Shown here: positions 23,364 through 59,000 of the stretch, in pieces
Position numbering within the stretch: position 1 is the stretch's first letter
Layout: each line of letters begins with the position of its first letter
Origin: an uncultured Bifidobacteriaceae bacterium
GTDB lineage: Bacteria; Acidobacteriota; Vicinamibacteria; Vicinamibacterales; UBA2999
Assembly (NCBI GenBank): GCA_964505975.1
Contig: CAZDLW010000001.1
Location: 25,576 to 89,575, forward strand
Reading direction: 5' to 3'
DNA: 64,000 nucleotides
Notes under the pieces: model-generated
The model's input: the letters and a program-made list of their open reading frames with translations, nothing else
Database searches by the model: none
Told to the model about the DNA's origin: nothing
Translations under genes and position numbers: made by a program

Positions 23364-24533
23364 ATGCCACCTCTCGACGATCCTGTCATCGTTCTGCTGC
23401 ACGATCTCGTGGCGATTGACTCGGTCAATCCGCTGCTGGTCGCGGGTGCGCACGGAGAAGCACGGATTGCGAAGCGGATTGCCGCGGAGTTGATTGATAT
23501 CGGACTGGAGGTACACGTCTCGGAAGTCGTCCCGGGCAGGCCCAACGTCGTCGGCGTGCTGCACGGCCGCCACGAAGGCCGCTCTTTGATGTACTGCGGG
23601 CACATGGACACGGTTGGTGTTGCGGGCATGTCCCACCCCTTCGAGCCCGAGGTTCGCAGTGGACGGTTGTACGGGCGCGGTGCGCACGACATGAAGGCCG
23701 GCCTGGCCGCGATGATTGGCGCAGCGCGGCAAGTCGTCGAGCGCGGTGGACTCGATCGCGGCAGGCTGATTGTGGCGGCCGTCATCGACGAGGAGTACGC
23801 GAGTGCCGGCGCGGATGCCCTGGTCACCGAGTGGCGCGCCGACGCTGCCGTGGTGACGGAACCGACCGGTCTCGACATCGCTATCGCGCACAAAGGTTTT
23901 CAGTGGGTGGCCATCGAGACTCGCGGACGGGCCGCGCACGGCAGCCGCCCGCTCGAAGGCCGGGATGCGATCCTGCGCATGGGTCGGATTCTGGCACGGC
24001 TGGAGGCCCTTGACGGCCGTCTCCAACGCGGCCCGGCGCATCCACTGCTCGGCACCGCCTCGCTGCATGCGTCGATCATCGAAGGCGGTGCCGAGCTCAG
24101 CAGCTATCCGGCGCATTGTGTCCTGCAGATGGAACGGCGGACGTTGCCGGGAGAAGCGTCAGACGTGGCAGTTCGGGAGGTACGAGAAGTTCTGGATGCC
24201 CTGCGAGAAGAGGACGCGGAGCTTGAAACCGATGCGCGACTGGTCTTCGGCCGGAACCCGTACGAACTGGACGGGTCGAATCCGCTCCCGGACCTGCTCG
24301 GGGCCGCCGCCGCTGAGGTAAGCTGGCATCCCCGCCACGTTGGAATGACGTTCTGGACGGATGCAGCAATCCTTGGCGGTGCCGGGATTCCGTCGCTCGT
24401 GTTCGGCCCGGGCGGTGGCGGCCTTCACACGCCGGACGAATACGTGCTCATCGATGATGTTCGCCGATGCCGGGACGCCCTGGCCGTGTTCGCCGCGACG
24501 TACTGCGGACACTCGGACTCCCGGGATGTCTAG
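23364..24533 (+). CDS. M20-family peptidase (ArgE/DapE-like deacylase)
   Basis: Motifs YCGHMDTVGV, GRGAHDMKAGLAAM, VIDEEYASAG. Confidence 0.8.
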   Translation: MPPLDDPVIVLLHDLVAIDSVNPLLVAGAHGEARIAKRIAAELIDIGLEVHVSEVVPGRPNVVGVLHGRHEGRSLMYCGHMDTVGVAGMSHPFEPEVRSGRLYGRGAHDMKAGLAAMIGAARQVVERGGLDRGRLIVAAVIDEEYASAGADALVTEWRADAAVVTEPTGLDIAIAHKGFQWVAIETRGRAAHGSRPLEGRDAILRMGRILARLEALDGRLQRGPAHPLLGTASLHASIIEGGAELSSYPAHCVLQMERRTLPGEASDVAVREVREVLDALREEDAELETDARLVFGRNPYELDGSNPLPDLLGAAAAEVSWHPRHVGMTFWTDAAILGGAGIPSLVFGPGGGGLHTPDEYVLIDDVRRCRDALAVFAATYCGHSDSRDV

Positions 24534-24592
24534 AGGCTGCGCCTCGGACCCGCAAGCATGTCGGCGGCGGCTCCGTCTCGCCAAGGCTACGG
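24529..24592 (+). repeat. Family-3 ~60-nt hairpin repeat (REP-like), copy 1
   Basis: CTAGAGGCTGCGCCTCGGACCCGCAAGCATGTCGGCGGCGGCTCCGTCTCGCCAAGG. It closely resembles the reverse complement of 49507-49567 and the split copy at 26738-26756 + 26949-26993. Confidence 0.7.
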
Positions 24593-41786: not shown

Positions 41787-44663
41787 TCACCGTGCCTCGA
41801 GCAGTGCGATCGGGAACAGCTCGAACACGTCCCCGGCTCGAATCGTCGCGCGGCCGTCCTCGTGGTGGATGGCGACGCACTGATCGGTGAACACGTTCCG
41901 GTACTCGGCCCGACCCGTCGAGGGAACGACCAGTTGCGTTTCGCCCCAGATGGATTCCCCGAGCGGCGGCACGCCGGAGTCCGGCAGCAGCGTCGCCACC
42001 AGTCGGGGTACGGCCACGATCAGGTGCTCGTCACCAAGGATCCTGGCGAATGCGAAGAGGTGATCCTTGCGCGCGCCGTCTCCGAGGACCGGCTCGTATC
42101 CACCGCGCTCGAAGAGGTCCCGTCGCGCCCGCCTGAACCGGAGCAGCGCCGTCGTCGCGTAGAGTTTCAGTCGATCGTCGGAGGCGTCCAGCACGCGCGA
42201 CGCCAGGCTGGCGGCGCCCTCCTCCCGCAGCGCTGCGTCGAGGTCCGCCAGCAGCGCCCGTCGCCGCTCGTAATCCACCGGCCGCCGGTTGTCCGGATCG
42301 ACGAGACTGAAGTCCCACAGCTCCGTCCCCTGGTAGAAGTCCGGCACGCCAGGAGCGCCAACTTTGACGGCGACCTGCGCAAGCGAGTTGAGTCGTCCGT
42401 ACCTGCTGACGCGGTCCTGAAACTCGATGAAGTCGTTCCGAAAGACTGTATGGTCCGGAGCGAGGACGGCGTGCACGAAGCGGGTCATTGCCTCCTCGTG
42501 CGGCTGGCTTGGATTGATCCAGCTCGTATAGACCTTGGCTTCGCGCATGGCCTTCGTCATGTAGGCCGCAAGGCGGTCACGGTACTCCCGCTCCTGTTCG
42601 ATGGTCATCGGGTCGAGCGGCCAGGACCCCACGAGCGTCTGGTAGAGCAGGTATTCCTCGTTCCGGCTGGGATAGGGCTGTCCGTCGACGACGGACCGGG
42701 CGCGCCGGTTGGCGCGCGCCCAGCGTGAAAGGGCTTGTTTCCAGGCCGCTGGAATCTCGGACAGGACGTTCAGCCGCGCCCTGACGTCCTCGCTGCGCTT
42801 GGTGTCGTGGGTGGAGGTCGCCGACAGACCGTGCGGCCAGCGCTCGCTCCGGATCGAGAGCCACTCGTGCAGGCTGCCCGGAGTGTTCCCGAAATGGTCC
42901 GGCTCGCCTCCCACTTCGTTGAGCGAGACGAGCCGGTTGTAGATGTAGAGCGCCGTGTCCTCGATGCCTTTCGCGGTGACGGGACTGGTCACCTGCTGGA
43001 ACCTGCCCACGAAGCGCATGTGCTCGTCGCGCTCCGCATCCGGAATGTAGTCTGCCTTCTTCAGGAGCAGATCGCGCACGAACTCGTACACCGTCGGCGG
43101 CCGGTTCGGGTTCCGCCGCTCGGCCTCCCGCATCGCGCGCGCGACGTACGACCGGTCGCGCTCGCTCATGTCGGGCTCGCGATCGTTCACATAGGTGCGG
43201 TAGACGGGAAAGCACGCGATAATCTCGCGCATCGCTTGGTTCAGGCTGTTCAGCGTGAAGTCGCGGTAGTGCCGATTGCGCTCGGAAAAGCGGTCCAGCC
43301 GGTAGGCCAGCACGTTGAGCTCGCTGGCCATGCTGACCCGCAGCATGAGCTGCTTGCCTCGATACACGATCTCGCGATACGGGACACGGAGCCGCGTGAA
43401 TCGCTCGTACACCTCGTTGATGGCACGTTCGTGACGGGTCTCGACGAACAACCCGTTCAGTCGGACGAGAAAGTCGTAGCCGGTCGTGCCCTCCACGGGC
43501 CAGTCCGGCAGCGTCTCGTCCAGACCAAGGATCTTCTCCACGATGACGTACGGCCGGCCGGCCGCATAGGCGTCCGGCCGGAGCTCGCGCGCTCGGGTCT
43601 GCAGCCGCACGAGGTAGTCGCCCGGATCGTAGAGACCGTCGACGTGATCGACGCGGAACCCGTCGATGCAGCCCTGCTGGAACAGCTCGAACACGAACTG
43701 GTGCGCGAGCTCGAAGATCGCCGGATCCTCCATACGGATGGCGGCGAGCTCGTTGATGTCGAAGAACCGCCGGTAGTTGATTTCTTCGGCGGCCACGCGC
43801 CAGTACGCCAGGCGGTACGGCTGGGCGTCGAGCAGAGCGTCCAAGGCGTCGAAGCTGCGCGGCTGCCCCGGGGTGCCGTTGAGCTCCGTCACGATACGGT
43901 TGACGTGGGCGAGCACCTGCGGCGCGCGCTGGGTCAGTGCGGCGAGGCGGCGCTTGATGACCTCCTTTTCGCGATCGCGCTCGGCCAGCAGCTCCGGTTC
44001 CTGTGTGTGCCGCGGAGGCAGATGCCGAATCGCCGTGAGAATGCTGAGGAACTCGATGCCGTCCGGGCTGTTGCGCTCGATGGCGTCGAGCAGGCCGTCC
44101 TGACCAAGGCGCAGGATGATGTCGTACGTCCCTGGCGCGACCGGGAACACCTGCTCGAAGTACCGCACGTAGAAGGCGCCGTTTCGATGTTCGAGCGTGA
44201 GCTCCTGCCGCTCCAGCACTGCGCCGTACGCATCGCCCAGCACCGGCAGCAGCACCTTCTGCTCCAGTTCCGGCTTGATCGGGCTCCAGTCGATGTCGAA
44301 GACGGAGGCGTATCGGGAGCTGGGGCCGTTCTCCAGAACGTCCTGCCACCAGGGGTTTGCCGAGTAAGCAATGCCCATGTGATTGGGCACGAGGTCGATG
44401 ATGTGGCCCATGTCACGCTCGCGTAGCGCAGCGATCCATGCCCTGTACGTGGTGAGGTCGCCGATCTCCGGATTGAGTCGGGTGGGATCGACGACGTCGT
44501 ACCCATGTGTGCTTCCCGGCACGGCCTTCAGGTAGCTCGACGCGTAGCAGTGAGAGATGCCAAGTGCATCGAGATAGTCCACGAGGCGTGTTGCGGCGTC
44601 GAAGGTGAAGCTGGCGTTGAACTGCAGCCGATACGTCGCGAGCGGAATCGTGGGTCCGGACAC
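41787..44663 (-). CDS. treY: Maltooligosyl-trehalose synthase
   Basis: 958 aa. The N-terminus is PLATYRLQFNASFTFDAATRLVDYLDALGISHCYASSYLKA, with GH13-like blocks throughout. Confidence 0.9.
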   Translation of the reverse strand: MSGPTIPLATYRLQFNASFTFDAATRLVDYLDALGISHCYASSYLKAVPGSTHGYDVVDPTRLNPEIGDLTTYRAWIAALRERDMGHIIDLVPNHMGIAYSANPWWQDVLENGPSSRYASVFDIDWSPIKPELEQKVLLPVLGDAYGAVLERQELTLEHRNGAFYVRYFEQVFPVAPGTYDIILRLGQDGLLDAIERNSPDGIEFLSILTAIRHLPPRHTQEPELLAERDREKEVIKRRLAALTQRAPQVLAHVNRIVTELNGTPGQPRSFDALDALLDAQPYRLAYWRVAAEEINYRRFFDINELAAIRMEDPAIFELAHQFVFELFQQGCIDGFRVDHVDGLYDPGDYLVRLQTRARELRPDAYAAGRPYVIVEKILGLDETLPDWPVEGTTGYDFLVRLNGLFVETRHERAINEVYERFTRLRVPYREIVYRGKQLMLRVSMASELNVLAYRLDRFSERNRHYRDFTLNSLNQAMREIIACFPVYRTYVNDREPDMSERDRSYVARAMREAERRNPNRPPTVYEFVRDLLLKKADYIPDAERDEHMRFVGRFQQVTSPVTAKGIEDTALYIYNRLVSLNEVGGEPDHFGNTPGSLHEWLSIRSERWPHGLSATSTHDTKRSEDVRARLNVLSEIPAAWKQALSRWARANRRARSVVDGQPYPSRNEEYLLYQTLVGSWPLDPMTIEQEREYRDRLAAYMTKAMREAKVYTSWINPSQPHEEAMTRFVHAVLAPDHTVFRNDFIEFQDRVSRYGRLNSLAQVAVKVGAPGVPDFYQGTELWDFSLVDPDNRRPVDYERRRALLADLDAALREEGAASLASRVLDASDDRLKLYATTALLRFRRARRDLFERGGYEPVLGDGARKDHLFAFARILGDEHLIVAVPRLVATLLPDSGVPPLGESIWGETQLVVPSTGRAEYRNVFTDQCVAIHHEDGRATIRAGDVFELFPIALLEAR

Positions 44664-44755
44664 AGGTCAGCCCAGCCGGATTCGAGGTTCAACAGTCGAG
44701 CCGAGTGCCCACATCATCGGGTCATCTTACGGGAACTCGACGGGAAAGCAGCCAC

Positions 44756-44810
44756 GGGGCTCCGCCTCACGTCCTTCGACCGTTGCTCAGGGTCGCGGGT
44801 CGAGGGGGTG
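44756..44810 (+). repeat. Solitary unit related to the 48856-49030 tandem repeat
   Basis: GGGGCTCCGCCTCAC-GTCCTTCGACCGTTGCTCAGGGTCGCGGGTCGAGGG shares the GTCCTTCGAC..GCTC.GG...GGTCGA core. Confidence 0.5.
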
Positions 44811-44883
44811 GCCACTGACGAACGCGCCCTCGGGTGCTTCGGGCGGCGAGCGACAAGGCACGCGTGGATCGGTCTCGGCAGGC

Positions 44884-45228
44884 TCAGGGCCGCCGCCGTC
44901 GGCGGGGACCCGTTTCGGGCGGAGCAGCCCACTCGACCAGGGTCTCGAGCGAGGCCAGCGCGTCACGAACCTGCGACGCCTGTCGCGAACTGAGGTGGGG
45001 ACGGTCGGTCTGGAGGCCGAGCAGATCGGCGAGGCTGACGCCGAGCGCGTCACTGAGCGCCCCGAGCGTGGTCAGCGTCGGATTGCCGCGTCCACGTTCC
45101 ACCTGGCCGATGATCTTGTGGCTGAGACCGGCCCGTTCGGCCAACTGCTCCTGCGTCAGGCGCTGTGCCTGGCGCAGCTGCTTCAGGCGGGCACCAACCT
45201 GGCCGCGAAGGTCTGTCACCCGCGACAC
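44884..45228 (-). CDS. XRE-family helix-turn-helix transcriptional regulator
   Basis: LKQLRQAQRLTQEQLAERAGLSHKIIGQVERGRGNPTLTTL is a classic HTH_3 motif. Confidence 0.8.
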   Translation of the reverse strand: MSRVTDLRGQVGARLKQLRQAQRLTQEQLAERAGLSHKIIGQVERGRGNPTLTTLGALSDALGVSLADLLGLQTDRPHLSSRQASQVRDALASLETLVEWAAPPETGPRRRRRP

Positions 45229-45319
45229 CTCCGGCAGGCAGTATGGCCAGCGGCCTCCTGACGGTGAACCCCTTACAAATCTGTTGACCAGGAACTATAG
45301 TGCCTGTCATCGTCGTCCC

Positions 45320-45673
45320 GTGGGGACCCCGCGACGCCGCGTGCTGGTGGTGGATGAAGACCCGATCATACGTGTGGCCATCGATCGCCAGCTCGAGATG
45401 CTCGGGTGGCAGGCGATCTGTGTGAACAACGGCATGGAGGCCGTTCACGCTGCGGAGCTGGGCGTGACGGTCGACGTCCTGCTGACGGACCTGCAGCCAG
45501 GGGGTCTCCATGGGACGACGGTCGCCTCCGCGGTGGCCCGCTATGTGCCGGATCTACGGGTGGTGTTCATGGGACAGGCTGCCTCCCCGGCGCCGGACGT
45601 TCACGTCCTCGTGAAGCCATTCTCCACGAGACGCCTGGCTGAGGCGTTGGCCGCGGCGGTCCGCCTCCGGTAA
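45320..45673 (+). CDS. Stand-alone CheY-like receiver protein
   Basis: In-frame GTG 45320 within ORF 44834..45673. Motifs VLVVDEDP, LLTDLQ, VKPF. The start is uncertain. Confidence 0.6.
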   Translation: MGTPRRRVLVVDEDPIIRVAIDRQLEMLGWQAICVNNGMEAVHAAELGVTVDVLLTDLQPGGLHGTTVASAVARYVPDLRVVFMGQAASPAPDVHVLVKPFSTRRLAEALAAAVRLR

Positions 45674-45774
45674 CGTGTCCTGCGCGATACCACGAACGGC
45701 AGGTCGAGGAGCCTGGCTCATTGTGCACGAATTCCGACCGGTCAAGCCGGCCGGGTGCGGATCCTCGTGGCTGC

Positions 45775-46281
45775 TCAGAATTCGCGATAGTTGCCGAACT
45801 GGAGCGCCACACCGAAATCCCGCTCTCGCAGGAGGCGCATGACGTCCTGAAGGTCGTCCTTGGAGGGCGACGTGATCCGGAGCTGGTCGCCCTGAATGGC
45901 GGCCTGGACCTTCTTCAGTCTGGCGTCCTTGATGAACTTCACGACTTCGCGCGCCCGATCCGAGGGGATGCCCTGCTGCAGCGCGATGTCCTGTCGTACG
46001 GTGCTGTTGGCGGCGGGCACGACGGCACCCCGCGTGAGGTTCTTGACCGGCACGTTCCGGCGGACGAGGCGTGTCTGAACGATCTCCCAGAGGGCGTTCA
46101 ACCGGAAGTCGTCGTCGGCGACGAGGACCAGCTTCGAGTTCTTCGCATCGAAATCGATCGACGCTTTCGCGCCCTTGAAGTCATAGCGCTGTGCCACTTC
46201 CTTCCGCGCCTGATTCAAGGCGTTGTCGACTTCCTGCAGATCGACATGAGAGGTGATGTCGAACGAACACTGCGTCGCCAT
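45775..46281 (-). CDS. yajQ: YajQ-family nucleotide (c-di-GMP)-binding protein
   Basis: MATQCSFDITSHVDLQEVDNALNQARKEVAQRYDFKG is a near-consensus YajQ N-terminus. ~168 aa. Confidence 0.9.
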   Translation of the reverse strand: MATQCSFDITSHVDLQEVDNALNQARKEVAQRYDFKGAKASIDFDAKNSKLVLVADDDFRLNALWEIVQTRLVRRNVPVKNLTRGAVVPAANSTVRQDIALQQGIPSDRAREVVKFIKDARLKKVQAAIQGDQLRITSPSKDDLQDVMRLLRERDFGVALQFGNYREF

Positions 46282-46354
46282 GTGTTGCACATGTTAGCAC
46301 TGCCGATCGACGCGCTCGTCGCGATCGTGGAGAGCCATGCGAAGGCATCCGATC

Positions 46355-48306
<1,952 letters not shown>

Positions 48307-48310
<4 letters not shown>

Positions 48311-48825
48311 TCCTCGTTCCCCTCCTGCACGATGTACGCAATCTGGAGCAGTCTCGAGCTGATCCGTACTCCCACTCGTGCCGCCGCCGCCGGACTGATC
48401 TGAAACCTGACGTTGTTGTCCTCGATGACGAAGTTGACGATGCCTCCGGATGCGATGAAATCAGGCGTTTCGCCGACGGTGAGCGTCGGTGTCCCCGCCG
48501 CGGCGCGGAGATAGGCCCCCATCGCAGCGCCTCGGGGCACGAAGACGACCTCGCACCCTGGCTCCGGCGAGAGAATGACACGCGTACGGATAGGTCGGTC
48601 GCGGACCGTCTCCCCGCTGACGGTTTCCTCGAGCACGGAGCCGAAGGGGTTGCGTCCGGCGACGCAGATGGTGATCGGGCCAGTCGAGGCGCCGTCGGGC
48701 CAGTCGACGAAGTTGAGGAACTGATACAGAAACGCCGCCTTGACGCGATACTCGGTGGATACCTCCTGCCCTCCGGCGAAGGCGCTACACAAGCCCACGA
48801 GCAGGAAGGGCAGGATGCGTGCCAC
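48307..48825 (-). CDS. YfiR-family (DUF4154) periplasmic protein
   Basis: It has a signal peptide and YRVKAAFLYQFLNFVDWP, which is characteristic of YfiR/DUF4154. Confidence 0.75.
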
Positions 48826-48855
48826 GTCAGCACCAGCCCGGCGTTGCCGCCCCTC

Positions 48856-49030
48856 GTCCTTCGACTGTCGCTCGGGACAACCCCGAGTGGGGTCGAGCTG
48901 TCCTTCGACTAACGCTCAGGACTACCCTGATCGGAGTTGAGCGGTGTCCTTCGACTCGCACTCCGGATAACCTCAGTCGGGGTCGACGCGTGTCCTTCGA
49001 CTCTCGTCGAGGACACCCGCGGGCGACGTC
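48856..49030. repeat. Four-unit degenerate tandem repeat (~44-46 bp units)
   Basis: GTCCTTCGACT begins at 48856, 48900, 48946 and 48992. The units share GTCCTTCGACTnnCGCTCnGGAC....GGGGTCGA. Confidence 0.8.
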
Positions 49031-49406
49031 CAGGAGTGGCATCCCTGCCGGTCCCCGTGGCCGGTTTGCCGTAGCTCGTGGCCGCGCATCGCGGGAGGGA
49101 GGAGGAGGGGGCGGCATCGATGAACGGGGCAGTGTAGCGTGTCTCATTCGTACGGGCAAAACACTGGCGCACCCGAGCCCATGCAGAGTGCGGACCGGAC
49201 AGGTCACCTGTGCATCCCTCTTCGATGAGCTTTGCCCCGACCCGTTGACCATGCGGCGGTGCTGCCCCGCCAGCGAGCGTGACGACCGGACCTGTGCGAG
49301 ACGGACGGAACGTTCCGACGAGTGTCGCCACCGACTGGTCCGTTGCAGGCCGCGTGCCTTGCCCCTCAGCTGGACGCGCGCCGGCACCAACGCTGCTGTC
49401 CCGCTA

Positions 49407-49492
49407 GACGGCTTGAACGGCCAGAATCCTTACGAATGAGTCAAGTTTTCGGACCGGCCGTTCAAGACGTCTCGCCCGCACGGAGTGCGGGC
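49407..49492. other. Two adjacent strong hairpins in a non-coding region
   Basis: 49407-49422 pairs with 49456-49471 (15/16, 33-nt loop). 49474-49481 pairs with 49485-49492 (8/8, GGA loop). Confidence 0.7.
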
Positions 49493-49506
49493 AGGAGATA
49501 CGGCCA

Positions 49507-49567
49507 ACCTAGCGAGGCGGAGCCGTCCCCGACATGCTCGCTGGTCTGAGGCGGAGCCTCGCTAGGT
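49507..49567 (-). repeat. Family-3 hairpin repeat, copy 3 (inverted)
   Basis: 12-bp helix 49507-49518/49556-49567. The reverse complement aligns with 24529-24592. Confidence 0.7.
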
Positions 49568-49591
49568 CCTGGCTCTACCGGGTTGCGAGCG

Positions 49592-49620
49592 TTGGAAGGC
49601 AGCTGGTTGCGCGTTATACT
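49592..49620 (+). promoter_or_regulatory. sigma70-like promoter candidate for the gvp-like locus
   Basis: TTGGAA (49592-49597), a 17-nt spacer, then TATACT (49615-49620), 84 nt upstream of ATG 49704. Confidence 0.4.
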
Positions 49621-49703
49621 TCGCCATTCGCGCGAGCCTCACGCCGCTCGGAGCGGCAGGAGTCGCATCGCGGGCCCCGCTGGACTGAGCGCATTTCTCC
49701 TGC

Positions 49704-50052
49704 ATGTCGATCGACCTGAGAACGACTCCGAGCCGTGGCAACGCCGGACTGGTCGACGTCCTCGATCGCGTGCTCGACAAGAGACTGGTGGTTGCTGGCG
49801 ACATCAAGGTGTCGTTGGCCGATGTCGAGCTGCCGCCTTCTGATCTGCTCGATGAACAAGGCCGAAGAGGTTGGTCTCGACTGGTGGAAGTACGACCGGC
49901 ATCTCTCGCCGGGCCGCGAGCAGATCGCACGGGAGAACGAGGCGCTTCGTGCGCAGGTGCGATCGCTCGAGCGTCGCCTGGCCAACGTGGCGGGGCCCCG
50001 CGTTGCGGAGGCTCTGGGCCACGACTCCAGAAAGGCACGACGACGACGATGA
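49704..50052 (+). pseudogene. GvpA/GvpJ-family gene disrupted by a frameshift/deletion
   Basis: Frame 0 encodes ...[28 protein letters not shown]. The homologous continuation RLLICSMNKAEEVGLDWWKYDRHLS... is in frame +1 from 49834 to stop 50052. Confidence 0.65.
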
Positions 50053-50126
50053 CGCTGCTTGGGGCGCGCGGAGCGCACCCGATTGATCGCAGCACGTGCG
50101 AGTGATCGCCCGAAGGAGCTTCAGGA

Positions 50127-50456
50127 ATGGCCGTGGAACGGGCAGCCGGAGGGACGAGTCTCATCGACGTCCTCGACCGAGTACTCGACAAGGGCATCGT
50201 CATCGATGCCTGGGTACGGGTGTCACTCGTGGGGATCGACCTCATCACCGTCGAAGCGCGTGTGGTCGTCGCGTCGATCGACACCTATTTGAAGTACTCC
50301 GAAGCCGTGGGCGCGGTGGGGTCAGCCGCCCGACCCACGCTGGAGCCGCTTCGACCGTATGACGAGCTCGCCGCGGAGAATGTCGTCTTGCGCGCCAAGC
50401 TCGCGAACGCCGCAACGGCGCGACGGTCCGTCCCGATTCGGCGTCGTCGATCGTAG
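50127..50456 (+). CDS. gvpA: Gas vesicle structural protein GvpA-family, with extended C-terminal tail
   Basis: [61 protein letters not shown] is a near-consensus GvpA core. A ~45-aa extra tail ends in RRRRS. Confidence 0.85.
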
Positions 50457-50618
50457 GCGGCCACGCCGGGACGCGACGGCGCAGCGCGAGCCTGCGCCGG
50501 CGCCGACTTTCGACCAGGCGTTGACGATGCTGTTGGAACGACGAGGCACCTGTGCGCAGTTGGTCACGGCTCCGCGTCGCGCCGGCTCGCCAGAGACCAC
50601 GAAGCGTTGCGCGATCAC

Positions 50619-52808
50619 ATGAACAATCCAACACGCTCGCTTCGCGTGCGCACGTCCGCGCGTCCGCCGCTCCGGACGGTCGACGATGCGGCCCGACTGG
50701 ACCTGCTCGAGCGCTGTCTCGAGCTTCGCGACGACCTCGTCCGCTGCGCGCAGGTTGGTCTGCAATGGCTCTCCGACAACCTGGGCATCACACGGGCGGT
50801 GTGTCTCGGCGTGAACGAGGAATCGAGCGCGCTCGTTGGTCTTGCCGGGCTCGGGGTGCCGTTTGGCGAAGTGGAGCGCTTTGCGTGGCCGTTGACCGAC
50901 GTCCACGATCCGCTCGTGGCTGCCATGGTGCGTCGGGAGCCGACGGTGCTTCGCGCCGGGCGGGGCAACGGTCATGCGTCGCGCGCCCTCCCGCGAACAT
51001 TGGTGGGGACTGGGGCGGTCGTGGCTGTACCGCTCCGCGGTGCGCACAACGCCGCCATGCGCGGAGACGCGGTGGGCCTCCTGCTGTTCCGTGGCACCGT
51101 GGCCGCTTCAGGCGATGTGGAGTGGTTCGCGTCGGTTCTCGGTCGGAAGATGGACCAGGTCCGCGACCGCGCTGGCCTCGCGAAGGAGTCGCAGCGGCTC
51201 CGGCGCGAGCGGGCCTTGTTCCTGACCATCATCAACGCCGTGCCCGACCCCGTACTGCTCACCGATACCGACGGCCGGCTCATTGTCGCCAACGCGCGTG
51301 CCGAGAAGCTGTTCGCCGCAACCGACGAGGAGAGTGACGGGCGTCGTCGTGCCGTGGAGCTCAACAATATGCTGCTCTCGGCAGCGCTCTCGCGGTCGAC
51401 GCTCGAAGCCTCCTTGGACGCACGGGAGTTGCTGCTCGTCGATCCCGGCGATGGATCGGACCTGCTGTTCGAATTGTTGAGCACGATCGTGCAGGATCCA
51501 CGCGAGGGCACGGGCGTCGTGTCCGTGCTGCGAAACGTCACGGATCTCCGCCGTGCGACCGAGCAGATCGAGGAGAACTACCAGAAGCTGCGTGTCGCCG
51601 AGGCCGCCGCACGGGCCGAGCGCGATCGCCTCAACCTGATCATCGACTCGGTTGCCGATCCCATCCTCGTCACGGACCAGAGCGGCGCCACGGTCCTGAT
51701 GAACGCACCCGCGGAAGAGCTGTTTGCGACACTGCCAGAGGCGGAGCGTCACTCACAGCAAGTCGTCCAGGCCAACGACGCGCACTTCTCCTCGTTCATC
51801 TCGGGTCTGCTGCTCGGCCAGACCGGTCCTGGAGAGACGCGACGCGGCGAGGTCAACCTGACGAATCCTCGAACGGGTGAACAGGTCCCCGTGGAAGCCA
51901 TCTGCGGCAAGGTCCTCACGGAAGCGGGCGAGCTCACCGCGGTCGTCACGATTCTGCACGATCGGAGGGAGGCAACCGAACGCGTGCGACTGTACGAGCA
52001 GTTGAAGACCGTCTCCGACGAGCTGCAGATGCGCGTGGAGGCCGCAACGGCCGAGTTATCCACCCAGAACGAGCTCCTGCGACGCCAGGCCCTGGAGCTC
52101 GAGCAGGCGTCGCGGCTCAAGTCGCAGTTTCTCGCCAACATGTCTCACGAGTTCCGTACACCGCTGAACGCCATCCTGGGATACACGCAGATGTTGCTGC
52201 AGGGGGTCAGCGGAGGTGTGGCACCGCCGGTCCGCCGTCAGCTCCAGCGGATCGACTCCAACGGGCGTCACCTCTTGACCATCATCAACGAGATCCTGGA
52301 CATTACCCGGATCGAGGCGGGCCGCATGCCGATGCAGGTCAGTGAATTCGACCTGAACGCACTCGTTCCCGAGGTCATGGCGGAGCTGGATCCGGTGATC
52401 GCCCGTTCGAGTCTCACGGTGACCACGCTGTTGGGGCCGCACCCGATGATCGTGCGGAGCGACCGGCAGAAGGTGAAGCAGATCGTCGTCAATCTCTTCA
52501 GCAATGCGCTGAAGTTCACTCCGGATGGCGAAGTCGACATTGCGATCAGCCTCGATCCCGTCGGCCGCACCGCCTCGGTGGCGGTGGCCGACACCGGGAT
52601 CGGCATCGCGCCCGAGCATCACGACAAGATCTTCGAGGACTTCCGGCAGGTCGATGACTCCCCGTCGCGTCCGTATGGCGGCGCGGGCCTCGGTCTTGCG
52701 ATCTGTCGCCGGTTGGCTCTGGCCCTGGGCGGGCGGATTTCCCTGCGCAGCGCGCCAGGCGAGGGATCGACGTTCACGCTCATGATTCCCACGGACCTCT
52801 CACCATGA
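50619..52808 (+). CDS. Cytoplasmic GAF/PAS sensor histidine kinase
   Basis: ATG 50619 within ORF 50607..52808. There are no TM segments. PAS-like segments are IINAVPDPVLLTDTDGRLIVANARAEKLF and IIDSVADPILVTDQSGATVLMNAPAEELF. It has H-box MSHEFRTPLNAILGY and HATPase motifs DTGIGI...GGAGLGLAICR. Confidence 0.85.
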   Translation: MNNPTRSLRVRTSARPPLRTVDDAARLDLLERCLELRDDLVRCAQVGLQWLSDNLGITRAVCLGVNEESSALVGLAGLGVPFGEVERFAWPLTDVHDPLVAAMVRREPTVLRAGRGNGHASRALPRTLVGTGAVVAVPLRGAHNAAMRGDAVGLLLFRGTVAASGDVEWFASVLGRKMDQVRDRAGLAKESQRLRRERALFLTIINAVPDPVLLTDTDGRLIVANARAEKLFAATDEESDGRRRAVELNNMLLSAALSRSTLEASLDARELLLVDPGDGSDLLFELLSTIVQDPREGTGVVSVLRNVTDLRRATEQIEENYQKLRVAEAAARAERDRLNLIIDSVADPILVTDQSGATVLMNAPAEELFATLPEAERHSQQVVQANDAHFSSFISGLLLGQTGPGETRRGEVNLTNPRTGEQVPVEAICGKVLTEAGELTAVVTILHDRREATERVRLYEQLKTVSDELQMRVEAATAELSTQNELLRRQALELEQASRLKSQFLANMSHEFRTPLNAILGYTQMLLQGVSGGVAPPVRRQLQRIDSNGRHLLTIINEILDITRIEAGRMPMQVSEFDLNALVPEVMAELDPVIARSSLTVTTLLGPHPMIVRSDRQKVKQIVVNLFSNALKFTPDGEVDIAISLDPVGRTASVAVADTGIGIAPEHHDKIFEDFRQVDDSPSRPYGGAGLGLAICRRLALALGGRISLRSAPGEGSTFTLMIPTDLSP

Positions 52809-53197
52809 CGGATCAGACTGCGCCGTTGATTCTCGTTGTCGACGATTACCAGGACGCCCGCGAGATGTACGCCGAGTACCTGCAGTTCTCCGGGTTCCGC
52901 GTCGCCGAGGCTCGCAACGGCAACGAAGCACTCGAGCAGGCCTTCGCGCTGCAGCCGGATCTCATCCTGATGGATTTGTCGCTGCCCGGCATGGACGGCT
53001 GGGAGGCCACACGACAGTTGAAGCGCGACGATCGCACCAGGCACACTCCGATCGTGGCCTTGACCGGTCATGCTCTGGCGGGCGCGTCGGAAGGCGCCCG
53101 AAGGGCGGGCTGCGATTCCTTCGTCACGAAGCCCTGCCTGCCGGACGATCTCGTGGTGGAGATTCGCCGGATGCTGGATGCCGTGAAGCACAGGTAG
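52805..53197 (+). CDS. Stand-alone CheY-like response regulator
   Basis: ATGA overlap with the kinase. Motifs ILVVDDYQDARE, LILMDLSLPGMDG, and a conserved Lys in FVTKP. Confidence 0.9.
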   Translation: MTDQTAPLILVVDDYQDAREMYAEYLQFSGFRVAEARNGNEALEQAFALQPDLILMDLSLPGMDGWEATRQLKRDDRTRHTPIVALTGHALAGASEGARRAGCDSFVTKPCLPDDLVVEIRRMLDAVKHR

Positions 53198-53243
53198 GAG
53201 CGGCGGCCCCGACCCGAACGACGCCCAACGACACGACGCGCAC

Positions 53244-54377
53244 ATGGCCAAGGCAAAGAATCGAGCCCCGGCACGTTCTTCCAGTCGCTCACCCCAGGGC
53301 AGGCCCGCGGGTGGCTCCGGGAGGAGCGGGCGAGTTCTCCGGAATGCGTCCAAGGAACGGACGGGCTCCGCGAGCGTGAATCCACGCACCGGCGTGCGCG
53401 CGTCGGTCCCACGGCGGACCTCCGCGGCCACGGATCCCGGGCGTGTGAATCGGGGGCGCGGCACTCGCGAGGTGCGCCCGGACGGCGGTGGCACTCTCGC
53501 CCGAGAGGCCACAGCACGAGCGAGCCGCGCGCGCGAATCGTTCGTCGCGGCGAACGAGACGAGCCCGGCTGTGTCACCGGCACCGCATGGGCAGAAAGCC
53601 GAGGCCGGCGACCATGGACGCTACGTCTACTGCATCATCCGCTCGACCAGCCCGCTGAGGTTCGGCCCAATCGGCATCGATGGACAGTCGCCGGAGGTGT
53701 ACACCGTCACCTACAAGGACATGGCCGCGGTCGTCTCCGACGTGCCCATCGCTCCACTGGACAGCACCAGGGAGCACGTGCTCGCGCACGAACGCGTGAA
53801 CGAGACCGTGATGCGCGGTCATACGGTCATCCCGATGTCCTTCGGCACGATCTTCAAGACGTCGGACGACATCGTCGAGCTCCTCCGGTCTGCCTACGAG
53901 GCGTTTGCGGACGTGCTCGACAAGATGCGCGACAAGCTGGAGTACGGCCTCAAAGTCCTGTGGGATCGCGACGAGATCGTGCGCGCCATCGAGCAGGAGG
54001 ACGAGGACATCCATCGGCTCAAGCGCGAGATCGCCTCGCAGAAGGGCTCGACGTATTTCGCGCGCATGCAGTACGGGCGGCTCATCGACACCGCGTTGCA
54101 GCATCGGTCGGAGCGGTACGTGGCCGAGTTCCTTCACCGACTGCGGAGCGTGTCCGTGGCTTCGCGGGTGAATCGCGCCATTGGCGACAAGATGATCATG
54201 AACGCCGCGTTTCTCGTGCAGCGCGATCAGGAGCGGGCGTTCGATCGGCGAATCAAGGAAATCGCGTCGGCGTTCGAGAGCCTGACGTTCAGGTATACGG
54301 GACCGTGGCCACCGTACAACTTCGTCAATATTCGGCTCAAGCTCGAGCGGGCGGGCCCGCCCGGAAAGACGGAGTGA
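53244..54377 (+). CDS. gvpF: GvpL/GvpF-family gas vesicle protein with Arg/Ser/Gly-rich N-terminal extension
   Basis: The core from YVYCIIRS (about nt 53619) to YTGPWPPYNFVNI matches GvpL_GvpF family motifs (AAVVSDV, VIPMSFGTIF). The first ~125 codons are low-complexity. An alternative GTG start is at 53571. Confidence 0.75.
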   Translation: MAKAKNRAPARSSSRSPQGRPAGGSGRSGRVLRNASKERTGSASVNPRTGVRASVPRRTSAATDPGRVNRGRGTREVRPDGGGTLAREATARASRARESFVAANETSPAVSPAPHGQKAEAGDHGRYVYCIIRSTSPLRFGPIGIDGQSPEVYTVTYKDMAAVVSDVPIAPLDSTREHVLAHERVNETVMRGHTVIPMSFGTIFKTSDDIVELLRSAYEAFADVLDKMRDKLEYGLKVLWDRDEIVRAIEQEDEDIHRLKREIASQKGSTYFARMQYGRLIDTALQHRSERYVAEFLHRLRSVSVASRVNRAIGDKMIMNAAFLVQRDQERAFDRRIKEIASAFESLTFRYTGPWPPYNFVNIRLKLERAGPPGKTE

Positions 54378-54378
54378 C

Positions 54379-54582
54379 GTGTTCGGTCTCGACTCCTTTC
54401 TCGGCTGGGTGCTACGCACCGTGACCGCTGCGGCACAGGCCGAGCTGAACGACGACTCGGAGCTGCGCGAACGGTTGCTGGAAGCCGAGCTCCGGCGTCA
54501 CGCGGGGGGGATCTCCGACAGCGACTTCACGGTCATCCCGATGTCCTTCGGCACGATCTTCAAGACGGCGGACGAGTTGTAA
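54379..54582 (+). CDS. gvpG: GvpG-like protein with a C-terminus replaced by a duplicated GvpF segment
   Basis: GTG start 1 nt after the gvpF stop. MFGLDSFLGWVLRTVTAAAQAELNDDSELRERLLEAELRRHAGGISDSDF resembles GvpG. The last 16 codons duplicate 53823-53869. Confidence 0.55.
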   Translation: MFGLDSFLGWVLRTVTAAAQAELNDDSELRERLLEAELRRHAGGISDSDFTVIPMSFGTIFKTADEL

Positions 54583-54611
54583 CGTGCGGGCGGGGGTCGC
54601 ATGCTCGAGGG

Positions 54612-54646
54612 ACGCGGGGCCTCGGGAGTGTCCCGAGGCCCCGCGT
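54612..54646. terminator. Bidirectional terminator-like hairpin between convergent genes
   Basis: Perfect 15-bp GC-rich stem ACGCGGGGCCTCGGG / CCCGAGGCCCCGCGT with a 5-nt loop. There is no U-tract. Confidence 0.55.
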
Positions 54647-54676
54647 GTGATCTGGACCGACGCGCGAGCGTCGTCC

Positions 54677-55924
54677 TTACCGTGCGACGCCGGAGTCCCT
54701 CAGTGACTCCAGTCTGCCGAGATCGAGGCCGGCCACGGCAGATCGCAGATCGTCCAGCTCAATCCCGTGGCCCTTGGCGCTCACCAGGAAGCGTTCACCC
54801 AGCACGATGGCGAATTCGTGTTCGCCGCCGGCCTTCGAGATCTTCTCGTGCACCAGGCGGTCGCCTACTTTCCGTGTGCGCTCGGAACTGTACTCGTCTT
54901 CCCGTTCGCCCTGGATGCCCGCCCAGCTCGCCAACCCGACGAGGCCACTGACGCCGCCGCTGTCCACGACTTCCAACGTCACGGTCCGGTTCGCCCCGTC
55001 ACCGTACGTGGCCCCCGCTCGGGCGATCATCAATCCCGTAATTCCCGTCCTCTCTGCGTTCTGACTCGTTCTCGGCAATCGTGCGAACGTCTCCGGCACG
55101 AATGCGCGAATCTCGTCCAGCTGGAGTGGTTCGACTCGCCGGCCGCCGCCGAACAGCGCTCCAAGGCCTTCCATGGCTGCAGCGACCTGGCCGCCTGTAT
55201 CGCCGCTTCTCTCGGCAGCCTCCATCTTCGCCGCGCTCTCCTCGATGCTGCGCGACAGTTGTCCCAGCAGCCCCACTGGACCGGTCTGGCTGGTCGCGGT
55301 CGTCGAATCGCTCCCCTCGGCGACGGTGCGCAGTGCGGCCGCGCCGATGGCTCCGGTCCCGACGATGAGTCCTCCCATGACCGTTACGATGAACGATACG
55401 ACGATGGCGCAAATCACGACGACGGCCGCGTAGAGAGGCGCTTTCTCTTCAGGACATCGCATCAGTCTCGGAAGACCGAGGTACAGGAGATACACGCCGT
55501 ACAGCGCACCGAGCAGGGCGAGGACGCTCAGAGGTGGCAGGATCTGAAGGACTCCCGCGACCCAGGCCGGGGTGTACGAGTACACGGCCAGCTTCAGTGC
55601 CCGGGTGGGGTCCTTCTGGGCGTCGAAACTCGGCGCGAGGGCGTTGATGATGAGCGACAGGACGAACACGCCGACAATCGCCATGCAGACGGCAAAAATA
55701 GCGGCGGCAAGTCCAGCGACGATCGGCACGCGGTAAGTGCCGACGAACGGCAGCGTGTAGCCGACCAGGGAACCGCCGATGAGGCCTGCGACCGCCCCCA
55801 CGGCCGCAAGCGGCAGCGCGTAGCCTGTCAGCAGTCCGCCGGTGGAGGCGGGCTCGTCGGCGATGACGCCCCACTCGGTCTTCGGAGACAGGCAGATCCT
55901 CTTGACGCGTTCGATGATGTCCAT
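54677..55924 (-). CDS. Yip1-domain membrane protein fused to a C-terminal soluble domain of unknown function
   Basis: ATG 55924 is preceded by GGAGG. MDIIERVKRICLSPKTEWGVIADEP plus five TM segments fits the Yip1 family. The C-terminal ~200 aa are unrecognised. Confidence 0.7.
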   Translation of the reverse strand: MDIIERVKRICLSPKTEWGVIADEPASTGGLLTGYALPLAAVGAVAGLIGGSLVGYTLPFVGTYRVPIVAGLAAAIFAVCMAIVGVFVLSLIINALAPSFDAQKDPTRALKLAVYSYTPAWVAGVLQILPPLSVLALLGALYGVYLLYLGLPRLMRCPEEKAPLYAAVVVICAIVVSFIVTVMGGLIVGTGAIGAAALRTVAEGSDSTTATSQTGPVGLLGQLSRSIEESAAKMEAAERSGDTGGQVAAAMEGLGALFGGGRRVEPLQLDEIRAFVPETFARLPRTSQNAERTGITGLMIARAGATYGDGANRTVTLEVVDSGGVSGLVGLASWAGIQGEREDEYSSERTRKVGDRLVHEKISKAGGEHEFAIVLGERFLVSAKGHGIELDDLRSAVAGLDLGRLESLRDSGVAR

Positions 55925-56028
55925 GGCTCGACCTCCACGACCTAGAGATTCTCGGCCGCTCGCCGCTGGCAGGACGAGGCGCGCATGGTAGCACAGCAGA
56001 GCTCGGCGCACGTATCGTCAGACGTTGC

Positions 56029-59000
56029 TCAGTCCCCGTCGAGCGTATCGTCCCGGTCCACCTCCGATGCCGCGCTATCGGGGTCCACATCGCGACTCGT
56101 GGCCCCATCGGATCCCGCGGCATCGTCTCGTCGGACCCGTTCTGGGGTCTCCTCCGGGTGTTCAGAGCTCCGATTGGCAGCCGTGGGTTCGACTCCCGGC
56201 GTGTCCTCGGGCCCTGCCATGTCGTCACCCGCGCGCGTCGGTGTCCGATTCGCCCCTGTCTGTTTCGTGTCCATTGACGTGCCTCCATGGCCTGGCGGCA
56301 ACGGGTCGACACTCGTGCCCGTGGCCGCTTCGATCTCCTGTACTCCCCGGTAACCAGTAGGGCGTATCCGTTCGGTCCGAAGCTGCAGGCCCATCGCGGT
56401 TCTTGCGAATCCGGCTTCGACGAAGACCGGCGCCGCGGGATGTTGCGTGGCCGGATGCGCGTTGATCGCGCTGATGAGCAGGCCCCGGCGCCCTTCCTCA
56501 CGCGTTGACGCGAACCGGATGAGACAGCGCGCGAGCGCGTCGATCATGCGGGACCAGAGCGGGTTGTCGCGGGACACGAAGAGCAGCAGGTCGCGCTCGT
56601 TGCGCCGGAGATAGCCGGCTGCGAATCCGCTCACCAGGATCGCCACCGCACCCGCGATCCGTGTCGGCCCGCGCCCGGGCGTCTCCGGGCGGGCCCCCGC
56701 CGACTCACCTCGATCGTCGGTGCGGCCCCCCGACTCGGACAGGAGTTCGGGCCACGGCACAATCGAACCATAGGGGTTTGCCGGATCCGTGGCTGCAAGG
56801 GCCACGGCCGTCAGCGTGTCTGGCGCATCGCGCAGCGACCGGATCGACTCCAGGGCCCCACCCATTGCGAATTGAGCAGCGCCCAGGCCCGCGACGAAAT
56901 AGCCCCGCTGGATGCGTCCAGCGTGTTCCATGGCTGTGAGCACAGGGTAGATGGCCGCGAAGCCGCCGGGGATGGCCTCGGCCAACGCCGCTTCCCGGGT
57001 CACGATGCCATATCGTCTCAGAAGCTGTCGCGCCACTGCCGCGCCCCATTCCGTGACACTTCGCCGATGGGTGATTGCGGAGTCGAGCAGGGACCAGCGT
57101 CCCGTGGCTGTCGGCGGAACGGCCGGGCGGGCGTGCTGCGATATCCCCCGGCGGCGGCGATCGTGAGCCCGGTCGACATCCACATAGGCGCGCAGGGGGT
57201 GCAGGGTGTCGTTGGTGACCACCCCCTGCCAGACGAGATCCCATAGGGCATCGACGGTGTCCTGGGGGAACCCGCCCCCGGTTCCGTGATGAATGGGGGC
57301 GAAGAACGACGCCCCGTGGCGCTGCAAGTAGGCGCGGACGTGGGCCGCCCGGTCTGTCATGACGGCCTCCGACTCTGGCGGGGAACCCGCCGGCCTGCCC
57401 ATCGTGACTGGCGCCCTCAGTTGATCCAGGTGTTCGGCCCGGTAGAGCACAATCCGGCCATCCTTGTCGCCGAGGCGCTCGACGCCGGCCCACACCACGA
57501 CTCCAGTGCCCATCAGCCCATCGAGCATCTCGCGGCGATAGCCGTGCACGCGCGCGGGGAGGATGTCGTCCTCGAGCATCGAGGCCGGGAGTGGTGCCCC
57601 CTGGAGCTGATCGATGGCGTCGAGCAGCGCATCGATGCCCTGTCTCGCAGCGCCGATCGCGTGCCAGCTCACCAGGAACCGGCCGAGTGCGTCCGCGTCT
57701 ACGGGCTCGATCTCCTCGCGCAATCGAGCCAGCGAGCGTCGTCGCAGCGTGTGGAGCACTCCTGGATCGACCCATTCCCGTTCGACGCCACGCGGGCGGA
57801 ACTCACCTTCCACCAGGCGGCCTTGTTCGACGAGCCGCCGAAGAAGGGCAATCGTGGCAGCACGCTCGAACCCGTATCGAGCCGCGAGATCCCCGGCGGC
57901 GAACGGCCCATGCGATCGGGCATAGCGGAGCACGATGTCTGCCGTCGCCTCGGGAACCGGGGCGAGAAACGCCTTCGGAAGTCCCGCTGGAAGGCGCACT
58001 GCGATCGCGTCGCGGTACCTGGCCGCGTCCTCCGCGGCGAGGTACCGCTCTCCGCCGCCAATGGTCAGCCGCAGGATGCGCTGTGCGCGCTCGAGATCCG
58101 CCGCCGCGGCGCGCGTGTCGGGCAAGGCGCTGCGCGCCTCGAGCTCGGCCGGCGACAGGTCCCCAATGCGCATTAGCAGATCGTGGAGGCCGTCGGCGGA
58201 TCGAACGCGGTAGCGCTCGTCGAGGTGTTGCAGCTGACGTTCGAGTGTGGCGAGGGCCTCGGGATTCAGCAGTTCCCGCAACTCGGCATCGCCAATGAGC
58301 TCACGAAGCTGGGCCTGATCGACCGACAGCGCCTGCGCACGCCGCTCGGCCAGCGGGGCATCGCCGTCATAGATGTAATTGGCGACGTAGCTGAAGAGCA
58401 GTGATGCGGCGAACGGTGACGGCCGTTGCGCGTCGGTAGCCGCAACGTGCACGGCGCCGTCCACCACGCGTCGCAGGATGTCGACGAGTCCTCGCATGTC
58501 GAAGTGATCGTGCAGGATCTCGCGATATGTTTCGAGCAGCACCGGAAACGAACCAAAGCGAGACGCCGCGGCGAGCAGGTCGGTTGCCCGCTTGCGCTGC
58601 TGCCACAGCGGGGTGCGGAGGCCGATGCGGCGGCGTGGCAGAAGCAAGGCGCGCGCCGCGGCTTCACGGAACCGCGCCGCGAAGAGTGCCGTGGCATGGA
58701 GCTGCCGCAGGACAAGCGCTTCGACGTTGTCCGGGTCGAGAAGCAGCCAGCCGGGATCCGGTGCCGTGTCCGTGCTTGGCACGCGCACGACGAACCCATC
58801 GTCGCCCCACAGGGCTTCCACGTCCAGGCCCGTGCGCTCCCGGATCTGTGCCGTGACCGCCATGGCCCATGGTGCGTGTACGCGGCTACCCAAGGGGGAG
58901 AGCAGACAGACGCGCCAGTCGCCGAGCTCGTCCCGGCATCGCTCGATCGCAACGGTGCGATCGTCGGGCACGGTGCCCGCGGCTGCCTGTTCGTCGAGGT

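Follow-up and report, generated by a model that had tools for sequence, protein, structure and literature searches.

A gas-vesicle operon with an embedded kinase–receiver pair and its probable recent inactivation in one Vicinamibacterales lineage

A 64-kb stretch of one assembled contig (CAZDLW010000001.1; the whole stretch is referred to as the window) contains, between positions 49,592 and 54,646, a gas-vesicle protein (gvp) locus with a histidine kinase and a stand-alone receiver among its structural genes. With a probability of roughly 85%, we consider this locus a recently inactivated copy of a gas-vesicle operon conserved in the Vicinamibacterales (Acidobacteriota). A preliminary description, made from the sequence alone, had wavered between a decaying relic and a minimal GvpA/F/G module wired directly to a phosphorelay. 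Two lineage-specific scars, the larger of which took genes kept in 53 of the 64 relatives with sufficient downstream sequence, support the relic. The minimal module is not supported, given that the conserved core of GvpG is cut and that gvpK, gvpL and the second gvpJ-like gene are lost.

The operon family and the two scars of the window locus

Relatives were collected in a species-level genome scan (one genome per species), which returned at least 488 stretches encoding a relative, and the best 80 were examined. For synteny counts, ten proteins of L001, a metagenome contig and the nearest relative found (~83% nucleotide identity to the window locus), were mapped onto all loci (81 loci), and from these the category of a Vicinamibacterales-type gvp operon with embedded kinase and receiver was defined. 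Nearly all examined loci belong to metagenome-assembled genomes (MAGs) classified as Vicinamibacterales or as unclassified Acidobacteriota; the few labelled Myxococcales, Rokubacteria, Methylomirabilota or Gemmatimonadaceae may reflect binning errors. A protein search with GvpF returned thousands of relatives at 82–90% core identity, the range that is also found inside the window’s clade, and the named ones among them are Acidobacteria or Vicinamibacterales.

On three long contigs, the order of Pfam matches is Gas_vesicle, Gas_vesicle, kinase, receiver, GvpL_GvpF, GvpG, GvpL_GvpF, Gas_vesicle, GvpL_GvpF and GvpK. Kinase, receiver and gvpF are adjacent in 67 of the 81 loci, and most non-adjacent cases belong to a clade with two separate blocks, gvpA-gvpF-gvpG-gvpL-gvpJ and gvpJ1-gvpA-kinase-receiver-gvpK. 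Among the 64 loci with at least 4.5 kb of sequence after gvpF, to which the count of downstream genes was limited, 53 carry gvpG, gvpL1, gvpJ2 and gvpK all downstream; nine of the other 11 are clade-3 loci cut by the locus end, and two (L026, L038) are truly reduced. The preliminary description had called the locus rearranged and the kinase–receiver pair inserted between gvpA and gvpF. Both terms have to be given up: the window order is the ancestral order of the family, and the synteny comparison which that description had proposed finds the pair conserved at the same position in the 67 loci. Pairwise protein distances, computed over a synteny-filtered set of 50 loci, correlate between kinase and GvpF (r = 0.957), kinase and receiver (r = 0.929), and receiver and GvpF (r = 0.901). 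As the three proteins have diverged in step, the pair is an ancestral, conserved part of the operon that was inherited with it, and not an insertion.

Table 1. Features of the window locus and its surroundings (window coordinates)
Feature	Position	Strand	Basis or remark
yfiR-like gene (DUF4154)	48307–48825	minus	
Promoter-like site TTGGAA-17 nt-TATACT, upstream of operon	49592–49620	+	sigma-70-type match
gvpJ1, GvpJ-like pseudogene	49704–50052	+	5′ part in frame of 49704, 3′ part in frame of 49735–50052
gvpA, major gas-vesicle structural protein, intact, 109 aa	50127–50456	+	Pfam Gas_vesicle, NCBIfam GvpA
Sensor histidine kinase, cytoplasmic	50619–52808	+	Pfam PAS, HisKA, HATPase_c; predicted GAF fold
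Stand-alone CheY-like receiver, 130 aa	52805–53197	+	Pfam Response_reg
gvpF (GvpL/GvpF family), intact	53244–54377	+	Pfam GvpL_GvpF
Source of filler inside gvpF	53823–53869	+	encodes TVIPMSFGTIFKTSD
gvpG, truncated and chimeric	54379–54582	+	native until ~54530 (51 codons), then filler sequence
47-nt filler at deletion junction	54529–54575	+	direct repeat D2, 46/47 identical to 53823–53869
Replacement of ~3.05 kb of ancestral operon by 147 nt	54531–54677		L001 DNA alignment
Perfect hairpin, 16-bp stem, 3-nt loop	54612–54646		inverted repeat I15, 100% complementary

The genes that survive in the window (Table 1) are readily assigned. GvpA matches the full Gas_vesicle profile (61.5 bits) as well as the NCBIfam GvpA subfamily (114.3 bits; cut-off 100) and is 90% identical to GvpA of L001, and GvpF scores 257.6 bits against GvpL_GvpF with a core 90% identical to that of L001. 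The first open reading frame (ORF) of gvpJ1 reaches 37.3 bits against Gas_vesicle, with a match confined to residues 16–43. A GvpG-like ORF, starting one base past the gvpF stop, scores 38.7 bits over positions 12–55 of the 67-position GvpG profile. All Pfam scores of the listed gvp, kinase and receiver genes exceed the curated cut-offs, and the guanine–cytosine (GC) content is even throughout the locus.

The two GvpA/J-family ORFs, the GvpL/F ORF and the position of the GvpG-like ORF were thus correctly placed in the preliminary description, whose GvpA/F/G calls also withstand the score check that it had suggested. What it overlooked is that the first GvpA/J-like ORF is frameshifted, its C-terminal half lying in another frame, and that the GvpG-like ORF is a truncated chimera. 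Its statement that further gvp genes are missing is borne out for gvpK, a second or third gvpL/F and a second gvpJ/M-like gene, none of which gave a tblastn match in the whole 64 kb down to E = 5. No AAA+ (GvpN-type) or GvpO Pfam family occurs among the cluster gene calls of three intact relatives, the window not having been searched with gvpN- or gvpO-specific models; the missing GvpN is common to actinomycete clusters too and is not decisive for function.

Judged by the components of a functional gvp cluster, the window retains an intact GvpA and a GvpF/L protein (one intact copy vs. three GvpF/L copies in intact relatives, two having been lost) and lacks an intact GvpG, GvpK and a secondary GvpA-like protein (GvpJ/M/S). 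Judged as a member of the operon family, it has gvpJ1, gvpA, kinase, receiver, gvpF and gvpG in this order on one strand, together with the TATACT promoter signature of clade 1, and the downstream block gvpL-gvpJ/M-like-(gvpL)-gvpK is replaced by 147 nt.

The GvpF protein carries an N-terminal extension of ~125 aa (window 53244–53624) that is basic, of low complexity and probably disordered, with many Arg, Ser and Pro residues. It begins with a MAKAK motif kept in relatives; the motif TRVTHETEVRGTETRVERVVER, conserved in most clade-1 relatives, has diverged in the window and in L001.

The first scar lies in gvpJ1. Pairwise alignment with L001 revealed the loss of 14 nt (CTGACGATTCGAAT in L001) after ~49832; LTIRI thereby drops out of the conserved core, and the frame is shifted. 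A tblastn search with GvpJ1 of L001 recovered two pieces in different frames, 49704–49832 at 88% and 49831–50037 at 81% identity. A programmed frameshift was considered and rejected, as L001 carries the 14 extra nt and these code for a segment of the conserved core.

The second scar removed the 3′ part of the operon. The window is colinear with L001 from 49589 to 54530 (L001 5937–10906; 83% DNA identity), and colinearity resumes at 54678–55936 (L001 13952–15207). The flanks match as well, with YajQ, the CHASE8 hybrid kinase and the YfiR-like protein (DUF4154) encoded on one side and Yip1 and the Lhr helicase on the other. The ~3.05 kb lost between these segments hold, in L001, the 3′ two-thirds of gvpG, gvpL1, gvpJ2, gvpL2 and gvpK. 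Homology of the window gvpG to its L001 counterpart stops at 54530, leaving 51 native codons vs. 153–187 aa in relatives (the range seen on the three long contigs) and cutting the core at profile position 55 of 67.

A 47-nt copy of gvpF, whose source lies 706 nt upstream, supplies the last 16 residues (VIPMSFGTIFKTADEL) of the 67-aa GvpG-like ORF. This filler is nearly identical to the window’s own gvpF (Table 1) vs. 85% identical to the same stretch in gvpF of L001, and the left junction shows a 2-nt microhomology (AC). Such a templated insertion at microhomology would fit template-switch or end-joining repair. At its end, the replacement DNA holds a perfect hairpin, flanked by the truncated gvpG on one side and the convergently oriented Yip1 gene on the other. 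The fold of 54576–54680 has a predicted energy of –63 kcal/mol (z = –4.6), and no second copy of the hairpin that would mark it as a dispersed repeat was found in the window. Although devoid of a U tract, it likely serves as a bidirectional terminator. A search of the coding strand gave no terminator-like site within the locus, and little DNA separates the operon genes, so that one transcript could plausibly run from gvpJ1 as far as the hairpin.

In the history that we propose, the ancestral operon would have comprised, in this order, a promoter, gvpJ1, gvpA, a GAF-PAS-PAS histidine kinase, a stand-alone receiver, gvpF, gvpG, gvpL, a gvpJ/M-like gene, another gvpL and gvpK. In the window lineage, one hit, the 14-nt deletion, would have frameshifted gvpJ1, and another, of ~3 kb, would have taken the whole stretch between mid-gvpG and the end of gvpK, with the 47-nt copy of gvpF closing the gap. 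The window locus alone should then not make vesicles, because each of the lost gene classes is individually required in Serratia, where gvpA1, gvpF1, gvpG, gvpA2, gvpK, gvpA3, gvpF2 and gvpF3 were each needed for vesicle formation (PMC4982088).

Departures from the full operon were seen in other genomes, too. L026 (3003–6442) stops after gvpA-kinase-receiver-gvpF, next to which an unrelated FtsH-like gene lies in convergent orientation; L038 (1–2112) has the order kinase-receiver-gvpF-gvpK; and L023, over its whole contig, shows a C-terminal receiver fragment downstream of gvpF and the C-terminus of an activator upstream. Decay or reshuffling of the operon thus appears to recur. Clade 2 differs by an addition, an ArsA-like double-domain ATPase of ~775 aa encoded between gvpG and gvpL (L028 11175–13499 and 17 other loci), which does not occur in the window’s clade.

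The kinase–receiver pair and the promoters of the family

The kinase ORF is open from a TTG at 50607, and the NCBI record holds the exact 729-aa product starting at 50619. Pfam identifies two PAS regions, HisKA (72.1 bits) and HATPase_c (99.3 bits), and the translation displays an H-box (SHEFRTPLN) and G boxes (DTGIGI, GGAGLGLAI); over its full length, the protein is 87% identical to the L001 kinase. Its N-terminus had no Pfam match to a GAF domain, no match in the PDB at E ≤ 1 when searched as a single sequence, and as a profile only a marginal one, to 3oov. The predicted structure of this region (mean pLDDT, the predicted local distance difference test score, 75) retrieved GAF domains for all top Foldseek matches in the PDB, with E-values down to 7e-8, and weak GAF_2/GAF_3 matches are present in nine of 42 kinase orthologues. 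Since the predicted-fold search matched GAF domains, we assign the N-terminus to this class, so that the predicted architecture reads GAF-PAS-PAS-HisKA-HATPase, the GAF part coming from the predicted fold and the rest from Pfam. This agrees with the soluble kinase sketched in the preliminary description, with its GAF-like N-terminus, two PAS-like segments, H-box and HATPase.

An exhaustive search of 1.84 billion cluster representatives with the N-terminal domain (window 50646–51242) returned 167 clusters at E ≤ 0.001, of which 54 also pass a limit of E ≤ 1e-10. Most of the listed matches sit near the N-terminus of the matched protein, and a word-indexed protein search with the same region gave five matches. 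Given only 167 clusters in the exhaustive search, the GAF-type sensor appears to be a narrow, family-specific domain.

The receiver matches Response_reg (93.3 bits) over residues 9–120 of 130, has no output domain and is 95% identical to that of L001. Its acidic pocket and other conserved residues are in place (D13, D14, D57, T87, K109), and its start overlaps the kinase stop as ATGA, as the preliminary description had read. The window thus encodes the hallmarks of a two-component system, with HisKA including the H-box His and HATPase_c on one protein and the acidic pocket with its Asp, Thr and Lys on the other. From the ATGA overlap and the co-divergence of the two proteins we infer phosphotransfer from kinase to receiver.

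Upstream of the operon, the promoter-like site flagged in the preliminary description proved to be the only sigma-70-type match in 48800–54800, and colinearity with L001 begins right at it (49589). Its TATACT box (49615–49620) lies 90 nt before the gvpJ1 start and is kept at –56 to –97 of gvpJ1 in 20 of 22 clade-1 loci. Clade 2, in contrast, has a canonical sigma-54 site (TGGCA[CT]-N5-TTGCT) 75–100 nt before gvpJ1 in more than 25 loci within L028–L078 (e.g. L028 at ~6743), with conserved TGTA-N10-TAC(G/A)-like palindromes further upstream. In clade 3, a gene for an NtrC-type activator (receiver, sigma-54 AAA+ domain and Fis-type helix-turn-helix) lies directly upstream of gvpJ1-gvpA-kinase-receiver-gvpK (L055 14819–16306, and in the same position in ~13 other clade-3 loci), and a hybrid kinase (L055 8100–9380) precedes the separate gvpA-gvpF-gvpG-gvpL-gvpJ block. 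For the window and its clade, the 300 nt preceding gvpJ1 yielded no sigma-54 site (TGGCA[CT]-N5-TTGC[ACT]), and the clade-3 activator matched nothing in the window when E ≤ 1e-20 and a coverage above 0.5 were required. Two near-matches to a sigma-54 promoter picked out by eye in the window were discarded for their wrong spacing, the regular-expression scan being empty. Going by these motifs, the promoter type switches between clades of one operon family, with sigma-54 in one and a sigma-70-like TATACT box in the other.

The wider surroundings of the window locus are as the preliminary description had them, with ~880 nt of non-coding DNA (878 nt by our measure) and then yfiR upstream, and a convergent Yip1 gene downstream. 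The gap yielded only short repeat matches and no gene remnants when compared with all loci by blastn and tblastx, and no Rfam family was found in 44000–58000 at E ≤ 0.1. A 46-nt tandem repeat (48856–49002; 3.2 copies, 78% match, consensus GTCCTTCGACTAACGCTCAGGACTACCCTGATCGGGGTCGAGCGGT) sits in the gap just upstream of the yfiR-like gene and is absent from L001, where the gap measures ~200 nt. An element of ~165 nt (49402–49566) has copies in the window (24533–24581), in L001 (15314–15476 and 2106–2187) and in L008 (1043–1202) that are 73–86% identical, lie in unrelated intergenic positions and lack an Rfam match, and possibly represents a small repeat dispersed in Vicinamibacterales. Divergently oriented upstream of the operon are genes for a CHASE8-HAMP hybrid histidine kinase and the YfiR/DUF4154 protein (window 46355–48825, minus strand). 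This pair is also found upstream in about half of the clade-1 loci, and a functional link to the gvp operon is possible.

Age of the damage and competing explanations

Private substitutions, i.e. changes found in one sequence alone at columns where the relatives otherwise all agree, were counted for the surviving genes. The window has none in GvpA, the receiver and GvpF, and five in the kinase (three in L001, up to nine in other relatives). Compared with L001, the ratio of nonsynonymous to synonymous substitution rates (dN/dS) is 0.05–0.17 for the intact genes and both gvpJ1 pieces, with 0.049 for the receiver, and 0.32 for the 51-codon remnant of gvpG, at a synonymous divergence (dS) of ~0.4–0.75 between window and L001. 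As the surviving genes show no excess of private substitutions and a low dN/dS, either the scars would be young relative to the split from L001 or the intact genes are still in use, two possibilities that these data cannot separate.

Several points speak against an inactivated operon. The full constraint on the surviving genes is equally consistent with continued function, and the missing genes could lie elsewhere in a genome of which 64 kb were seen, the more so as split arrangements exist (clade 3, L038). Both scars are known from a single NCBI contig (95,295 nt). Three Logan contigs (SRR16547339, SRR9906329, SRR9906328) are 100% identical to the window and span only 51381–53455, thus reaching neither scar. 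A 23-mer across the junction had four matches in a metagenome scan, all in gvpF of distant relatives that read DFTVIPM by coincidence. Finally, even for the intact operon, a gas-vesicle function is presumed from homology. The Logan contigs do indicate that the strain of the window occurs in at least three public sequencing runs, since independently assembled contigs agree perfectly over the shared stretch.

One alternative is that the locus belongs to a split working system, supplying GvpA, GvpF and the signalling pair while gvpG, gvpL, the gvpJ/M-like gene and gvpK reside elsewhere. The two clade-3 blocks, ~5 kb apart, and the kinase-receiver-gvpF-gvpK order of L038 offer a precedent, and the absence of relaxed constraint in the surviving genes would be expected. 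An orderly split would, however, not leave a gvpG cut in its core and fused to a piece of gvpF, nor a frameshifted gvpJ1, and the nearest relative holds the entire set at the same position between the same flanks. We consider this alternative improbable.

A less probable alternative is that the assembler, or an error in binning, made one or both scars and that the real chromosome lacks them. The single assembled contig, the want of an independent assembly across the junctions and the 47-nt near-repeat at one of them would suit such an artefact. Yet a misjoin at a repeat would unite the true flanks, whereas the filler sits between codon 51 of gvpG and ~100 nt of unmatched DNA and is one base away from a perfect copy of its source. 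Consensus errors, too, would not typically delete 14 nt from coding DNA free of repeats, and colinearity with L001 holds on both sides, which makes an artefact very unlikely.

The second option of the preliminary description, in which GvpA and GvpF would form a minimal module that a phosphorelay controls directly and that does something other than build complete vesicles, draws on the intact and conserved gvpA, kinase, receiver and gvpF, and on the second genome, L026, that likewise stops after these four genes. Against it, a broken gvpJ1 and a broken gvpG look like remnants rather than a trimmed design, no known system can dispense with GvpK, GvpG and secondary GvpA-like proteins when making vesicles (PMC4982088), and reduced loci make up only two or three of ~82, each reduced differently; we rate it as highly improbable. 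That the kinase–receiver pair is a recent, unrelated insertion, an idea prompted by nothing more than its unusual place among structural genes, is refuted by the same position in 67 of 81 loci (Vicinamibacterales MAGs and some labelled Myxococcales, Rokubacteria or Methylomirabilota), by the kinase–GvpF co-divergence and by the uniform GC content.

Known gas-vesicle systems and a possible signalling route

The nearest described precedent is the set of cluster-encoded regulators GvrA, GvrB and GvrC of Serratia, among which GvrB and GvrC presumably are kinase and receiver, respectively. In Serratia sp. ATCC 39006, the three proteins are needed for expression of gvpA1 (PMC4982088, PMC6617781), whose sigma-54-dependent promoter is opened by GvrA (PMC11778176). 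Both systems keep regulators inside the gvp cluster, and sister clades of the window share with Serratia either a –24/–12 promoter before gvpJ1 or an adjacent NtrC-type gene. The systems differ in that kinase and receiver lie between gvpA and gvpF here and at the end of the second operon in Serratia, and in that the Vicinamibacterales-type family is devoid of gvpN, gvpC and gvpV. In the window’s clade, moreover, the conserved TATACT box stands in place of a sigma-54 site, and the flanks read contain no activator gene.

In relatives with an intact operon, structural and assembly proteins would be encoded together with their own sensor. A cytoplasmic cue could be read by the GAF and PAS domains of the kinase and trigger autophosphorylation, upon which the phosphate would move to the translationally coupled single-domain receiver. 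Since this receiver has no DNA-binding domain, it should act by protein binding or as a phosphate sink that drains a parallel route. The sigma-54 promoter or neighbouring NtrC-type activator of the sister clades suggests a three-part circuit like that of GvrA, GvrB and GvrC. A different role, which we mention as an unlikely one, would be that of an assembly-level controller, in which the phosphorylated output-less receiver binds a Gvp protein, e.g. the basic N-terminal extension of GvpF, and gates vesicle nucleation in soil Acidobacteria on the cytoplasmic cue; the intact gvpA-kinase-receiver-gvpF remnant would then be kept for a role beyond buoyancy.

The gvpO-A-F-G-(Y)-J-L-S-K clusters of actinomycetes (Streptomyces coelicolor type) resemble the present family in their soil hosts, in the lack of gvpN and gvpC, and in the backbone A-F-G ... 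J-L-S-K (PMC9501494). For them, too, it is doubtful whether vesicles form at all (PMC4982088). Unlike the present family, they possess gvpO and no two-component pair, whereas the Vicinamibacterales-type operon adds a GvpJ-like gene before gvpA and three GvpF/L paralogues.

Within the same phylum, a gvp cluster of Acidobacteria bacterium Ellin345 was noted in 2010, in which an ArsA homologue accompanies two L/F genes as well as J, K and M (PMC2963123), reminiscent of clade 2 with its ArsA-like double ATPase (775 aa). In contrast, the window’s clade carries no ArsA gene, and the 2010 description mentions neither kinase nor receiver.

Inactivation of gvp clusters by DNA rearrangement has parallels in Microcystis and haloarchaea. 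Most such cases involve insertion sequences, and a 2004 study from this group of cases reportedly linked a rearrangement of the gvp cluster to the loss of buoyancy. Here, no mobile element was seen, and a short templated filler is found instead.

In open-access papers and preprints, we found no report on gas-vesicle genes of Vicinamibacteria or on a kinase and receiver between gvpA and gvpF. Within that literature, the preliminary description was right to call a two-component pair at this place in a gvp locus undescribed, and cluster-encoded regulators as such are known from GvrA, GvrB and GvrC. The operon type with built-in kinase and receiver is widespread and apparently undescribed.

Taken by itself, the inactivated window locus is a case of ordinary gene decay, and its value is that of a pointer to the operon family. 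Strong conservation of this operon, which brings its own sensor kinase and single-domain receiver, extends over hundreds of Vicinamibacterales species, uncultured and living in soil and groundwater. The switch between sigma-54 and TATACT promoters among its clades makes its regulation comparable with the GvrA/GvrB/GvrC circuit of Serratia. Being compact and free of gvpN and gvpC, these clusters may be of interest, too, to those who search for gas-vesicle genes to be used as acoustic reporters. Regarding the role of gas vesicles in soil bacteria, a sensor encoded within the operon offers a concrete handle on the inducing signal.

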